The notes under the pieces were generated by a model, which saw only the letters and a program-made list of their open reading frames with translations, was not told the DNA's origin and did no database searches. DNA of 64,000 bases from Panacagrimonas sp. (GTDB lineage Bacteria > Pseudomonadota > Gammaproteobacteria > Nevskiales > Nevskiaceae): contig JBQTJW010000007.1 of the NCBI GenBank assembly GCA_052386745.1, positions 117,998 through 181,997 of the forward strand. The letters are read 5' to 3'. This document shows, in pieces, positions 1,917 to 12,409 of this stretch (position 1 is the stretch's first letter; every line of letters starts with the position of its first letter). The position numbers were made by a program, and so were the translations under genes.

Positions 1917-2999
1917 ATGAGCAACTCATTTGATTCCGATTCGATGGACGATTTTTCCGGCGACGCCGCCGCCGACCTCGCCGAGGGCGCTGCCGACGGT
2001 GACGGCTTCGAAGGGGACGGATTCGACGCAGACGGCTTCGACGACAGCTTCGACGAGGACGGCTTCGATGCCGTTGCCGAGGCTCCGGCTGCCCAGGCCG
2101 GTGATGCCTTCGACGAGGACGGTTTCGACGACGGTGGCGACGATGCCGATGCCTTCGAGATGGCGCTGGCCGACGCGATGGACGCCGAGGACAGCGGCGA
2201 ATTCTTTGGCCGGCTGCTCTCCGGCATCGGGCGGGTCGCGGGCCTGGTGGGCCGCGGCGCGCGCGGTGCGCAGGGACTCGCACGCGGCGTCCAGGGCGTC
2301 GCCCGCGGTGCGCAGGGTGTCGCGCGCACCGCTGCCAACGTGGCCAACCGGGTGGGTCGCGTGGCCGGGCAGGCGGGCCGTGTGGCCGGCCGCTTCGGCG
2401 GGATTGCCCAGCAGGTCGGGCGCGCGGCCGGGCAGGTGGGTCGCCTGGCCAACGCCGGCCAGCAGGGCGGTGCCGGGGCCATGCTGCCGATGCTGATGCA
2501 GATGCTCCAGCAGTACCAGGCGCAGGGCTTCGACGAAATGGACGCCTTCGACGACCTGGCCGACTGGTTCGAGGAGGACGGTGCGGATGCCGCCATTCCG
2601 CTGCTGGCCGGATTCGCCGCGCGCACCCTGGCCCGGCCGCTGATGCGCCAGGCCGGTGCCGCGCTGAGCCAGGGCGCGCGCCAGCGCATCGTGCGCGGCG
2701 CCACCCAGGCCGCGCGCACCCTCGTGCGGCGTGGCGGTCCGCGCGCCGTGCGTGCGCTGCCCCGGGTCACCCAGAGCGTGGCGCGCGTGGCCGCCCGGCG
2801 CCGGCTGCCGGTCCGCACCGCGGTGCAGAGCGCAACCCGCGCCGTGCAGCGCACCGCCGCCCGCGTTGCCGCGGAGCCGCGCCTGGTCCGGCAGCTGGCC
2901 GCGCGCCCCGCGGGTCGCCAGCCGCAGGCGCTGGGGGCCGCCGGCCGTCGCTTCCGCGTCGCCGGCCCGGTGGAGATCACCGTGCGCCAGCTGCGCTGA
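1917..2999 (+). CDS. hypothetical acidic/cationic block protein A (360 aa)
   Basis: AGGAG RBS at 1905-1909 before ATG 1917; host-like codon use; FDEDG repeats, Gly/Arg heptads, second acidic block, Arg-rich C-terminus. Confidence 0.85.
   Translation: MSNSFDSDSMDDFSGDAAADLAEGAADGDGFEGDGFDADGFDDSFDEDGFDAVAEAPAAQAGDAFDEDGFDDGGDDADAFEMALADAMDAEDSGEFFGRLLSGIGRVAGLVGRGARGAQGLARGVQGVARGAQGVARTAANVANRVGRVAGQAGRVAGRFGGIAQQVGRAAGQVGRLANAGQQGGAGAMLPMLMQMLQQYQAQGFDEMDAFDDLADWFEEDGADAAIPLLAGFAARTLARPLMRQAGAALSQGARQRIVRGATQAARTLVRRGGPRAVRALPRVTQSVARVAARRRLPVRTAVQSATRAVQRTAARVAAEPRLVRQLAARPAGRQPQALGAAGRRFRVAGPVEITVRQLR
2262..2450 (+). repeat. nine degenerate 21-bp (heptad) tandem repeats within gene A
   Basis: RGAQGLA RGVQGVA RGAQGVA RTAANVA NRVGRVA GQAGRVA GRFGGIA QQVGRAA GQVGRLA. 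Confidence 0.75.
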
Positions 3000-3044
3000 T
3001 TTCCACCCCTCAACCCATTGATCTACGAACCAGGAGCAAGAGCC

Positions 3045-4055
3045 ATGGATCGCTTCGACACCGATGTGATGGATGACCTGATGGATGCTGCCGACGCCCC
3101 CGCGGGCAGCGCGATGGACGATTTCGACGGCGCCGATGGCTTCGACGATTTCGACGGCGGCGACGAGGGCGATGCCTTCCTCGGTCGCATCATCGGTGGC
3201 CTGGGCAACCTGCTCGGCGGCGCCGGCGCGAATGCCTTCGACGAGGACGGCTTCGACGAAGACGGCTTTGACGACGGCTTCGACGAGGATGGTTTCGACG
3301 CAGCCGCCGACGACTACGATTCCTTTGACGACGCCGTTGCCGACGCGCTCGACGCCGAGGACGGCGACGAGTTCTTCCGTCGCATCGCGCGGCTCGCGCG
3401 CGGCGCGGCGCGCGGCATCGGTCGCGTGGCGGGCACGGTGGGACGGGGCATCGGCCAGGCGGCGCGCGTCGTGGGCCCCATCGCCAGCATGATCCCGCTG
3501 CCGCAGGCGCAGATGATCGGCCGGCTTGCCAATGTCGCAGGCCGCCTGCTGGCGGATGGCGCCGACGAGTTCGAGGCCATCGATGCCCTGGTGGAAGAGT
3601 TCGACGAGGAAGCGCTCGACGCGGCCGCGCCGGTGGTCGCCGGGCTGGCCCTGCGCCGTGCCGTGCCCAACGTCGCGCGCATGCCGCGGCCGGCCCGCCG
3701 GCGCCTGGTGCGCGCGGTATCGCAGGCCACGCGCACGGCGGTGCGTCGCCAGGGCGCTCCCGCTGCCCGCGCCGTGACCCGCGTCGTGCGCACCGCCGCC
3801 CGCGCCGCGCAGGCACGCCGGATCGCCCCGCGCACGCTGCCGCAGGTGGTTCGCCGCGTCACGCAGCAGGTGCTGCAACGCCCGGCCGCGGCACGTCCGC
3901 TCAGCCGTCCGCTGACCCCGCCGGCCCGGCGCGTGGTCCCGCGCCCGCGCGTGGCGGCGGGCGCTGCCCGGCGTGGCCACGTGTGCCGCCATTGCGGCAC
4001 GCACCAGCTGCACTTCCGCGGTCCGGTGCGCATTTCCATCCAGGGCCGTCGCTGA
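3045..4055 (+). CDS. hypothetical acidic/cationic block protein B (336 aa), paralog of A
   Basis: AGGAG RBS at 3032-3036; shares AFDEDGFD, ADAxDAEDxxEFF and C-terminal GPVxIxV/I motifs with A; CxxC near the C-terminus. Confidence 0.85.
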   Translation: MDRFDTDVMDDLMDAADAPAGSAMDDFDGADGFDDFDGGDEGDAFLGRIIGGLGNLLGGAGANAFDEDGFDEDGFDDGFDEDGFDAAADDYDSFDDAVADALDAEDGDEFFRRIARLARGAARGIGRVAGTVGRGIGQAARVVGPIASMIPLPQAQMIGRLANVAGRLLADGADEFEAIDALVEEFDEEALDAAAPVVAGLALRRAVPNVARMPRPARRRLVRAVSQATRTAVRRQGAPAARAVTRVVRTAARAAQARRIAPRTLPQVVRRVTQQVLQRPAAARPLSRPLTPPARRVVPRPRVAAGAARRGHVCRHCGTHQLHFRGPVRISIQGRR

Positions 4056-4122
4056 AGCGCAGGCGCTGCAACGCGGCAAGCGGGCCGGGCGCATCCCGGC
4101 GGCGGTGAGGCGGAGAACGGGC

Positions 4123-10915: not shown

Positions 10916-11919
10916 GGGCCGAAGCCGCGGTCAGGCGCGGTCCGCGTATCAACCACAGGGACCTGGTGATGGTGACGGTGAGCGGCCAGATTGCGCACCC
11001 GGTGGGCCGCGCCAACCCCTACCGCATCGGCTACGACGGCGTGCCGCGGGTGCTGCCGGGCACCGGCGGCATCGTGCTCAATCAACGCATCGGCGATCGC
11101 TGCGTGGGCCTTGCCGGCGACCACATCGAGCCGGGCGTGTCGCTGCACAACAACGGCCGCGAGGTCGTGGGGCCGCGCAACGGCCCCAACACGGCGCTGA
11201 TGACCTACGCCTGCATCGGCAACTCCGTGCGCGTGGTCAGCGGCGCCTGCACCGGCAAGATCGGGCTGGTGACCGGCAAACACGGGGGGATCAACCACGT
11301 GATCGTGGATTTTCCGAGCCGGGTGCTGGCGGCGCTTTCCATAGGCGATCGCATGCAGATCGTCAGCCACGGCCTTGGCCTGCGCCTGCTCGACTACCCG
11401 AGGGTGGAAGTCCTGAACTGTGCACCCCGCCTGCTCGCGGCCTGGGGCATTGTGGAGCGCGATGGCGTGCTCCACGTGCCGGTGAGCCACCGCGTTCCTG
11501 CCTCCCTCATGGGTTCGGGCCTGGGCAAGAACAACACCTGGATGGGCGACTACGACATTCAGCTCGCGGACGCGGCCACGCGCAGCCGCTACCGGCTCGA
11601 TTCGCTGCGCTTCGGTGACCTGGTGGCGGTGCTGGACGCCGACAACCGCCGCGGGCCTTCGTACCGGAGCGGGCGGGTCACCATCGGAGTAATCGTGCAC
11701 GGCGATTCCACGGTCAGCGGTCACGGCCCCGGTTTCACGCCCTTGCTGACCGGATCGGTGGCGCAGCTGCGGCCCATGATGGACGAGCGTGCCAACCTCG
11801 CAGCCGTGATGGGAGTGCGTGAACCGGCGCCATTGCGCCGCTATCGCACCTTGCCCGAGGCCGCACCAGCGGTACGACCATCGAAAGCCTCAGCGAAATT
11901 GGCCCGAAGTGTGGTGTAG
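10912..11919 (+). CDS. DUF4438-like protein
   Basis: Motifs PYRIGYDG, LPGTGGI, DHIEPGVS, GLVTGKHGG, LMGSGLG, GDYDI and GHGPG match my recollection of the DUF4438 family; ATGA overlap with upstream gene. Confidence 0.8.
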   Translation: MRAEAAVRRGPRINHRDLVMVTVSGQIAHPVGRANPYRIGYDGVPRVLPGTGGIVLNQRIGDRCVGLAGDHIEPGVSLHNNGREVVGPRNGPNTALMTYACIGNSVRVVSGACTGKIGLVTGKHGGINHVIVDFPSRVLAALSIGDRMQIVSHGLGLRLLDYPRVEVLNCAPRLLAAWGIVERDGVLHVPVSHRVPASLMGSGLGKNNTWMGDYDIQLADAATRSRYRLDSLRFGDLVAVLDADNRRGPSYRSGRVTIGVIVHGDSTVSGHGPGFTPLLTGSVAQLRPMMDERANLAAVMGVREPAPLRRYRTLPEAAPAVRPSKASAKLARSVV

Positions 11920-12022
11920 GTCGCATCCCGAACGAAAACTGGCATTGCGTTTCCACTTTTTCAGGCGAAAATTGTCAGATGCCGATCCAGCGACCCCGGT
12001 CGCGCAGCCTCGGAAACTTGCC

Positions 12023-12409
12023 ATGCGGAAAGTCGCTAAATCGGTCGATTCACACGCGATGGTGCGGGCGCGCGGCGTTCCGCCGCCGGACGGCCCGACA
12101 CACCAGGACACCGAGCTACATGTGCCGGCGCGAGCGGCGAGTGCACATCCGTCGGACGGCTTTTCGCGATCCGAGAATCATCCGATCCAGACCCCGCAGT
12201 GCTTCGAGCAGCTCACGCCCCGGGAGCTGCAAATCGCGATGCTGATCTGCTACGGCCGCTTGAACAAGCAGATTGCACAGCAGCTGCGAATCAGCGAGTA
12301 CACCGTATCCGCCCACCTCCGCCGGATTTTCGCCAAGCTGCGGGTGCACAACCGTGCCGCGATGGTTTTTGTCTGTTCGTCCAGCGGGTTGCGCCCCGAA
12401 CCTCACTAG
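12023..12409 (+). CDS. solo LuxR-type HTH transcriptional regulator (start 12023 or 12059)
   Basis: LTPRELQIAMLICYGRLNKQIAQQLRISEYTVSAHLRRIFAKL is a canonical LuxR HTH; no REC or autoinducer-binding domain. Confidence 0.8.
   Translation: MRKVAKSVDSHAMVRARGVPPPDGPTHQDTELHVPARAASAHPSDGFSRSENHPIQTPQCFEQLTPRELQIAMLICYGRLNKQIAQQLRISEYTVSAHLRRIFAKLRVHNRAAMVFVCSSSGLRPEPH

Follow-up and report, generated by a model that had tools for sequence, protein, structure and literature searches.

Introduction

Short terminal sequences that mark proteins for loading are known from several assemblies. Internal proteins of phage T4 carry capsid-targeting leaders, which are removed by the gp21 protease after loading in the course of prohead maturation, and short terminal tags load cargo into encapsulins and microcompartments. 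The present study deals with an operon of Panacagrimonas sp. (Gammaproteobacteria, Nevskiaceae), located at positions 1917-12409 of a 64,000-nucleotide stretch of DNA (the window; assembly GCA_052386745.1, contig JBQTJW010000007.1, positions 117,998-181,997, forward strand), in which an acidic N-terminal leader is common to proteins of different kinds. It is tentatively read as a self-contained conflict (effector) system of an undescribed kind. No publication describing the operon was found in a literature search.

The closest working analogy is the N-terminal cargo signal of extracellular contractile injection systems (eCIS), among them the Photorhabdus virulence cassettes (PVC) and the antifeeding prophage (Afp), whose payloads need a short polar leader independent of the Sec pathway for loading (PMC9054023, PMC11297309). 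As in PVC and Afp, diverse toxin-like payload genes stand at the tail of a conserved operon and a short non-Sec N-terminal leader is common to the payloads. An Ntox5 payload domain occurs as in PVC (PMC3482391), and a variable binding module would likewise set the target. Unlike in eCIS, genes for a sheath, tube, baseplate, spike or AAA ATPase are missing in and around the operon, three of five cluster-bearing genomes gave no Phage_sheath_1 match, the core is all-helical without any fold match, and the leader is acidic with a recognisable motif.

Polymorphic toxin systems (Zhang, Aravind and colleagues 2012) also join one N-terminal element to interchangeable toxin or hydrolase domains, exchange variable cassettes apparently between lineages and include toxin-associated peptidases. 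The operon differs from them in that its trafficking element would be a leader of ~12-40 residues instead of a known trafficking domain, its toxins are separate small genes and not the C-terminal tips of giant proteins, no immunity genes are seen, and there is no link to type II, V, VI or VII secretion systems (T2SS, T5SS, T6SS, T7SS). The operon resembles prohead maturation in its small, very basic proteins and enzymes with a short N-terminal targeting sequence and in its dedicated protease, but it has no capsid, portal, scaffold or terminase genes, and PHROGs returned nothing for the core. Two further likenesses are partial. Several versions of the system contain cytoplasmic peptidoglycan hydrolases without signal peptide, as in holin-endolysin cassettes, but proteins A and B have no holin-like transmembrane segment and most loci have no peptidoglycan hydrolase. 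An anionic pro-piece combined with cationic amphipathic helices in A and B recalls the precursors of cationic antimicrobial peptides, although both proteins are 330-400 residues long and their conserved motifs reach well beyond a precursor. Protein I is a clear member of the TM1086/DUF4438 family, with both Pfam domains above cut-off; the function of this family is not known, it is found beyond the operon, and it is missing in two divergent versions of the system.

Results

Organization of the operon

Ten genes on the + strand make up the region, nine co-oriented (A-I) and one LuxR-type regulator (J):

1414-1916, + strand: upstream non-coding leader of the island, presumed promoter/regulatory region, with CAGGAGC at 1904
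1917-2999, + strand: A, 360 amino acids (aa), acidic head and basic tail
3045-4055, + strand: B, 336 aa, paralog of A
4123-5454, + strand: C, 443 aa, putative zinc metallopeptidase (motif level)
5501-7393, + strand: D, 630 aa, conserved helical N-terminal domain at 5501-6835
7419-8084, + strand: E, 221 aa, occupant of a hypervariable slot
8127-9224, + strand: F, 365 aa, all-helical hallmark protein
9270/9294/9318-10178, + strand: G, 286-302 aa (start uncertain), PIN-like acidic residues
10175-10915, + strand: H, 246 aa, optional accessory protein with an acidic leader and a PD-(D/E)xK-like core
10912-11919, + strand: I, 335 aa, DUF4438, TM1086 homolog
~12023-12409, + strand: J, ~128 aa, LuxR/GerE helix-turn-helix (HTH) regulator

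The intergenic gaps from A to G are 45, 67, 46, 25, 42 and 45-93 bp, the last varying with the start of G, and ATGA overlaps join G to H (10175-10178) and H to I (10912-10915). The heptamer CAGGAGC lies 6-8 nt 5' of the ATG in A, B, E and F. Since it is not enriched window-wide (21 found versus 13.9 expected), its placement before start codons is the informative part. Terminator or promoter signals above chance were not detected within the operon, and no sigma-70 consensus was found in the leader at 1414-1916. The co-oriented layout, the overlaps, the ribosome-binding sites, the trailing LuxR-type gene and the flanking genes reported in the initial annotation, which was made from the sequence without database searches, all agree with the coordinates. 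The same holds for its statement that no Sec/Tat signal peptide is evident, as none of the nine proteins A-I contains a signal-peptide-like or conserved transmembrane segment.

Conservation of the gene set

The order A, B, C, D, F, G, I, J was recovered in ~70 of 80 fetched loci from at least five phyla, and the series A/B, C, D, F, G, I, J was kept wherever the contig was long enough. These loci cover Beta-, Gamma- and Alphaproteobacteria, Cyanobacteria, Kuenenia, Syntrophaceae and others; A/B-family open reading frames (ORFs) were counted in 64 of them (one to three each), G in 74, I in 73 and J in 67. The co-occurrence in other genomes that the initial annotation had set as a check is thus strong. 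ORFs in the fetched loci were called from stop to stop; their start positions are approximate, and shadow frames account for some of the accessory ORFs of high GC content; only accessory ORFs with domain matches or clear leaders were relied on.

Protein F is the hallmark of the set. Its homologs fall into at least 771 database clusters (clustering at 90% identity) that are 62-85% identical to the F of the window, and a scan with one genome per species gave 139 F-bearing species. Among the carriers are Nitrosomonas, Aromatoleum, Roseateles and Burkholderia; F is also present in Methylococcaceae, Competibacter, Lysobacteraceae, Chromatiales and Roseiarcus, in cyanobacteria (Microcystis, Leptolyngbya, Cyanobium and Gloeobacter-like forms), and in Kuenenia, Syntrophaceae, Armatimonadota and Sericytochromatia. 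Among the nearest relatives searched, 40 gave no F. The mean column identity of the F alignment is 79% (24 sequences from several phyla). The GC content at third codon positions (GC3) of F tracks that of its host, from 44% in Nitrosomonas to 95% in Aromatoleum; therefore, to judge from codon composition, the high protein identity across phyla is attributable to strong purifying selection and not to recent transfer.

Proteins A and B

A and B are paralogs with 36% identity (E 1.6e-55). Their heads are rich in acidic residues and Phe: residues 1-125 of A contain 28% D+E and 10% F, and residues 1-118 of B contain 34% D+E and 11% F. Residues 1-81 of H have 33% D+E. Beyond the acidic head, the K+R content of A, B and H is 16-19%, and in the last 135 residues of A and B the R+K content reaches 21-25% with at most 1% D+E. 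Both proteins begin with a tag: MSNSFDSDSMDDF in A, of the pattern M-D-Q-P-F-E-S-D-V-M-E-D-L, and MDRFDTDVMDDL in B, of the pattern M-D-R-F-E-x-D-V-M-D-D-L. Tags of the B type are near-identical across phyla.

The order of elements behind the tag is also kept across phyla, namely an acidic, aromatic-rich stretch of low complexity, the motif ALDAEDxDEFF, heptad-like Gly/Ala/Arg repeats, a second acidic motif ending in D-A-A-x-P, and an Arg-rich tail ending in G-P-V-x-I. In A, the heptad-like repeats are present and the Arg-rich tail ends in GPVEI, and B terminates in CxxC...GPVRISI, a motif kept in 51 B-type orthologs. The tails can form cationic amphipathic helices whose hydrophobic moment (muH) reaches 0.96 at a net charge of +6 in B; windows with muH > 0.6 make up 18-20% of A and B versus 0-3% of the other proteins. 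Both the composition counts for the D/E/F-rich heads of A, B and H and the muH values bear out quantitatively the acidic heads and cationic amphipathic tails that had been described earlier.

Accessory proteins and the shared acidic leader

H does not belong to the core, as it was found in 6 of 80 other loci. In the seven sequences of its family, the elements AE, LD, ESKH and Q..Y are conserved in the order expected of a PD-(D/E)xK nuclease. This resemblance is at motif level, with no match in Pfam or PADLOC. Leaders in the family are of the type FVDEILADL or AFEREVMADL, the latter being that of H in the window. A relationship of H to a second accessory family (L009 type) was rejected (hhalign probability <1%). 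H is directly followed by the core gene I through the ATGA overlap, and no conserved small ORF follows the accessory toxins.

In other loci, accessory genes are placed between F and I or 3' of I:

Locus L069: a PG_binding_1 plus Peptidase_M23 protein (8e-28) and two further PG_binding_1 proteins
Locus L040 (metagenome-assembled genome of Synechococcales): a 187-aa protein with a 48-residue leader and an Ntox5 domain (4.8e-18, 65.8 bits versus a cut-off of 25)
Locus L014: an Aspzincin_M35-like protein with HECFH
Loci L068, L070, L074-L077 and L080: trypsin-like proteases conserved 3' of gene I (Chromatiales, Kuenenia, Syntrophaceae)
Several loci: accessory families without annotation

No signal peptide was found in any of the accessory enzymes. 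In its defining paper, Ntox5 is listed solely among toxins that PVC-type injection systems deliver (PMC3482391). In L040, a 115-codon fragment of a family-2 glycosyltransferase (13762-14106), probably an insertion remnant, lies between the Ntox5 gene and the DUF4438 gene. The seven loci with trypsin-like proteases contain three conserved extra genes between I and the LuxR gene, for a small protein with the motif LDALVLAEIE, the trypsin-like protease with its acidic leader, and a protein similar to methyltransferases that use S-adenosylmethionine.

Many accessory proteins start, at the Met, with an acidic amphipathic pattern: MYERFVDEVLDDL, MYRSFDDDFFDDL, MARDRVDEFVDDLM, MIDRGLDEIDSFVDEAI, MMQSFVNQVMDTL. 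The leader consensus is M-x-x-F-[DE]-x-[DE]-h-h-[DE]-[DE]-L, where h is hydrophobic, usually followed by more acidic sequence. Directly behind the Met, the pattern was observed in 8 of 919 non-core ORFs inside the clusters versus 0 of 919 outside (p = 0.004), a modest statistic that comes from few, partly related loci with a pattern derived from the same data; the overall frequency of the pattern is equal inside and outside, and the Met-adjacent position alone differs. A hidden Markov model of the A/B tag scored B at 19.2 bits and H at 9.2 bits, versus 6.5 for the best ORF outside any cluster. This strict model retrieved only extra A/B-like paralogs and H, with the looser accessory leaders below noise. 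Across loci, then, one N-terminal leader is joined to Ntox5, M23, M35-like, trypsin-like and nuclease-like modules, as expected of polymorphic toxins, but the cognate downstream immunity gene and the secretion genes at the locus that would complete the comparison were not found.

Core proteins

All ten proteins were run against Pfam, NCBIfam, PADLOC (PADLOC-DB 2.0) and PHROGs. Only I and J were recognised, and A-H gave no match. Sequence and profile searches of the PDB with C, D, F and G were also negative, and no F homolog was found among 50,697 phage records. Together with the fold searches in the PDB and the viral BFVD, these results place the core in no described pathway, in line with the remark in the initial annotation that no characterised system of this composition could be named.

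In C, the residues H191, E192, H195, K233, E234, A237 and D238 are invariant among 27 orthologs of 55-71% identity. They form the motifs HEVAH and KEIFAD, with H191, E192, H195, E234 and D238 as zinc-motif residues. C resembles the gluzincins at motif level, since HExxH is followed by a Glu (E234) ~20-40 residues downstream, and it is very basic (isoelectric point 11.1). No described peptidase family or fold was matched in Pfam, NCBIfam or by PDB sequence, even with a 27-sequence profile or with the 27 orthologs singly.

D has a conserved N-terminal domain of ~420-440 residues (residues 1 to ~440) made of long helices, modelled by AlphaFold2 with a mean predicted local distance difference test (pLDDT) score of 83.6. 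Its fold had no PDB match, with a best template-modelling (TM) score <0.2. A variable, often Ala- or Pro-rich segment follows, and then a short conserved C-terminal motif. Two ideas about D were dropped: the Ala/Val hydrophobic stretch of the window D is not conserved in 69 orthologs, which speaks against a membrane span, and the linker-like nature of the variable part, followed by a conserved motif, does not fit a polymorphic toxin with a variable toxin C-terminus. The AlphaFold model of F is all-helical (mean pLDDT 74) and matched nothing in the PDB or the BFVD (best TM score <0.2); weak talin, bestrophin and AhlB/C rows in the fold searches are noise.

In G, D36 and D70 are invariant and D122 and D172 nearly so, with a PIN-like spacing, and a motif ALAAAL..ILT is present. 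The protein is 22-46% identical across 74 loci. None of 25 members matched any Pfam PIN family and their profile found no PDB chain. Protein I belongs, by its domain and sequence matches, to the DUF4438/TM1086 family, with matches for both its N and C domains (PF14505 at 1.5e-53, 180.5 bits, cut-off 24.9; PF20999 at 4e-48, 162.9 bits, cut-off 27) and with Thermotoga TM1086 as PDB 3dcl (E 1.4e-67) and 3n99 (E ~1e-67); it is 44-80% identical across 73 loci. A literature search gave no paper on DUF4438, and the only papers with TM1086 were one on crystallisation methods and unrelated ones on worm genetics, where the name denotes alleles. The labels of the initial annotation therefore fared unevenly: HEVAH...KEIFAD in C and DUF4438 for I stand, while PD-(D/E)xK for H and PIN for G stay at the level of motifs, with no Pfam or PDB match.

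J has a GerE domain (PF00196, 1.1e-17, 63.8 bits versus a cut-off of 23.5), and neither a receiver nor an autoinducer-binding domain was detected in it. As a member of the conserved set, it is located downstream on the same strand or upstream and divergent, and a J-type gene also adjoins divergent F-like genes.

A hypervariable cassette between the conserved genes

The slot between D and F is occupied by 22 unrelated sequence clusters among 56 proteins, and the E of the window has no homolog in the 80 loci. Domains found in the slot, of adhesin-like or sensor-like character, include CBS pairs, transthyretin-like/CarboxypepD_reg domains, cadherin domains, collagen repeats and many coiled coils; in a few loci E is absent and D is longer. 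Among the 56 slot proteins, 10 have a motif [TN][AV]F[HY] within their first 70 residues, versus 3 of 3258 other ORFs (p = 2e-16), and the E of the window carries it, as RTGQTAFHTL, on an otherwise unique sequence. The types of the D C-terminus and of E partly co-vary (adjusted Rand index 0.54) and are common to distant hosts, for instance Piscinibacter/Rhizobacter and Lysobacteraceae.

The GC3 of D and E is 66-76%, versus 85-90% for the other operon genes and 78% for J. The coincidence of this low-GC3 region (5501-8084) with the hypervariable D C-terminus and E suggests, on compositional grounds, that this part was replaced by recombination more recently. The D C-terminus and E together would be an exchangeable specificity module.

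Divergent versions

A profile search with F gave 778 clusters at 50% identity in a wider superfamily, in which two divergent versions of the system were recognised. In type 2, one or more A/B-like acidic/basic proteins are encoded together with an HExxH peptidase of the C type (E 9e-80 and 2.5e-92), a helical protein of another kind and F', which is ~34% identical to F. Next comes a LuxR gene, a gene for a PG_binding-like protein, or genes for M20 peptidase and amidohydrolase, and this type lacks both G and DUF4438. In the fusion type, a protein of 615-660 aa with an F-like C-terminal half is preceded by a subtilisin-type S8 peptidase, and DUF4438 is absent as well, a family that also occurs outside the operon. 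The following examples were inspected:

Type 2, L083: Paraburkholderia sp. PGU19 megaplasmid NZ_AP023181.1, ~5784-15861 of the locus, record unannotated there; two E/W-rich acidic proteins, a C-type peptidase, a 658-aa protein, an F-like protein (34%), M20, an amidohydrolase and a divergent LuxR gene
Fusion type, L082: Tolypothrix sp. PCC 7712 plasmid NZ_CP063787.1, locus positions 7561-18779; genes in the order alpha/beta hydrolase, S8 peptidase, peptidoglycan-binding protein, F-like fusion (615 aa), then five further hypothetical genes; also metagenome contigs L100-L102

The S8 peptidase again stands beside the fusion protein on the metagenome contigs. An F-like protein with a peptidase is the invariant pairing in all versions, and acidic/basic and peptidoglycan-binding proteins, the latter without signal peptides, are often near this pair.

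Discussion

A proposed system of leader-addressed effectors

The operon is most readily read, with a rough probability of 0.35, as a self-contained conflict (effector) system of an undescribed kind, in which pro-effectors addressed by their leader would be matured by the HExxH peptidase. A and B would be the universal clients, and the optional ones would vary by genome: here the nuclease-like H, elsewhere the M23 hydrolase, the Ntox5 toxin, the M35-like metalloprotease, the trypsin-like proteases and the families without annotation. The acidic leader may act as an address that is read by the conserved core, C, D, F, G and the DUF4438 protein, and the basic C, as the obvious candidate to bind the acidic part, most likely would clip it off, by which the cationic tails of A and B, possibly acting on membranes, and the enzymes would be unmasked. 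The variable C-terminus of D together with E, docked through its N-terminal motif, could set what the system binds or responds to, and J may keep the operon off until needed. The end effect would be damage to the cell envelope and to nucleic acids.

As to the target, attack on another cell seems somewhat more likely than suicide of the producer. An outward role is favoured by the peptidoglycan-directed and PVC-type toxin domains and by the adhesin-like domains of the E slot, and suicide by the lack of export parts and immunity genes. A stronger form of this proposal is that the operon encodes a protein-delivery or toxin-release apparatus without a classical secretion or phage-like injection machine, built from helical proteins of new fold, a portable acidic cargo tag, swappable targeting through the D C-terminus and E, and a maturation peptidase; as such it is doubtful.

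The initial annotation had proposed acid-masked effectors unmasked by the peptidase in a cell-death, anti-phage or toxin module. The leader common to toxin and hydrolase proteins, the cationic segments of A and B and the pairing of F-like proteins with peptidases speak indirectly for the masked effectors. The anti-phage part found no support: the only PADLOC match is that of the J HTH, to the HTH regions of CARF3 and CasR, and the genes share the composition of their hosts and are ultra-conserved, unlike typical defence genes. The accessory enzymes directed at peptidoglycan have no signal peptides and agree no less well with an outward role or one in lysis.

Several observations weigh against the reading as leader-addressed effectors. 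Neither a cleavage site or product nor a particle, an export route or a phenotype has come to light. With no membrane span, ATPase domain or signal peptide in the core proteins, the exit of any protein from the cell is unexplained. The leader statistic is modest for the reasons given above, no immunity-like gene stands beside the toxin-like accessory genes, and the peptidase, PIN and nuclease assignments come from motifs alone. As most loci have no accessory enzyme, the universal function must rest on A, B and the core. Finally, the M20 peptidase and amidohydrolase that follow the F-like gene of Paraburkholderia, where DUF4438 is absent, hint at a metabolic step.

Alternative readings

The lack of secretion components, signal peptides and immunity genes would also be expected if the products acted inside the producing cell, in an intracellular suicide or abortive infection. 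The D C-terminus and E would then sense an invader, C would cleave the acidic heads, and the freed cationic helices, the nuclease, the PIN protein and, where present, the M23 enzyme would kill the producer in a holin/endolysin-like manner; signal-peptide-less peptidoglycan hydrolases act likewise in phage lysis cassettes. The patchy distribution, with no operon in the 40 relatives mentioned above, and a hypervariable module beside a conserved core, as in sensor-effector defence systems, point the same way. However, PADLOC found only the HTH, a core 60-85% identical across phyla with host-like GC3 is unlike fast-evolving defence genes, and the few flanks inspected showed no recurrent defence-island or mobile-element setting. 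Cadherin, collagen and transthyretin-like domains in E are, moreover, more typical of extracellular binding, and Ntox5, M35-like and trypsin-like enzymes are typical of exported toxins, so that suicide of the producer appears unlikely. If, instead, F, D and the DUF4438 protein formed an intracellular particle or scaffold, the leaders would load A, B and the enzymes, and C would mature the assembly like a prohead protease. F is conserved to an extreme degree, which points to many fixed protein contacts, and the TM1086 crystal entries, with 5 and 30 chains, would allow for pentamers. A and B might provide scaffold or counter-charge through their basic tails, and N-terminal non-Sec tags load cargo in eCIS particles (PMC9054023, PMC11297309). 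The helical bundles of F and of the D N-terminal domain are nevertheless unlike known capsid, shell, sheath and tube proteins, and searches of Pfam and PHROGs revealed no HK97, bacterial microcompartment (BMC), sheath or portal family in the operon, which leaves such an assembly quite improbable, although the leader as a loading tag, the alternative offered in the initial annotation, is as well supported as its proposal of masked effectors.

A regulatory or metabolic role was also considered, in which C would process A and B to peptides serving as signal, storage or nutrient, DUF4438 or other hydrolases would degrade them further, and F with the LuxR-type protein would sense. F-like genes adjoin GerE/LuxR genes even in minimal divergent loci, and the variant of Paraburkholderia described above would suit such a pathway. 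Since the conserved set contains no transporter or biosynthetic enzyme, and the toxin-type accessory genes (Ntox5, M23, the nuclease-like H) and the hypervariable cassette do not fit, this role is very unlikely.

Returning to the reading as leader-addressed effectors, it would imply a new route of antagonism or programmed lysis in bloom formers and in nitrogen and methane cyclers, and the short, sequence-defined cargo tag and the modular targeting cassette might be of use as tools. It would also supply the first functional context for DUF4438 and a new HExxH peptidase family. The gene set varies little across Microcystis, anammox bacteria, Nitrosomonas, methanotrophs, Burkholderia and Pseudomonas, and in degree of conservation its hallmark F equals core housekeeping proteins, yet neither a known fold or family nor a publication was found for it.

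Independence from contractile machines

No sheath, tube or baseplate genes were found in the operon with Pfam and PHROGs. The Panacagrimonas genome encodes a T6SS sheath protein, TssC, elsewhere (contig C16:178100-179008, 449.8 bits). This T6SS has no connection with the operon, given that none of five other cluster-bearing genomes yielded TssC (PF05943). A contractile sheath (Phage_sheath_1) is present in two of these five; searches of the complete chromosome of Nitrosomonas and of the genomes of Microcystis and Kuenenia gave none.

Island borders and flanking genes

An acyl-CoA synthetase gene, ending at 1413, precedes the operon, and a gene for an outer-membrane factor of the resistance-nodulation-division (RND) type follows it on the - strand (12544-14004). 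In relatives, these two genes are ~160 kb apart; a simple comparison with an empty site was therefore ruled out and no simple insertion site can be drawn. Near the Methylolobus aquaticus locus (L104:17496-20880), a P4-like integrase and a Phage_GPA replication gene were found ~2.5 kb downstream of the LuxR gene, and nothing resembling them was seen at the locus of Pseudomonas sp. LFM046. The operon is one horizontally acquired island. Homology of the upstream flank to relatives stops at ~1386, near the end of the acyl-CoA synthetase gene, and the island extends over ~1414-12630 in the Panacagrimonas genome.

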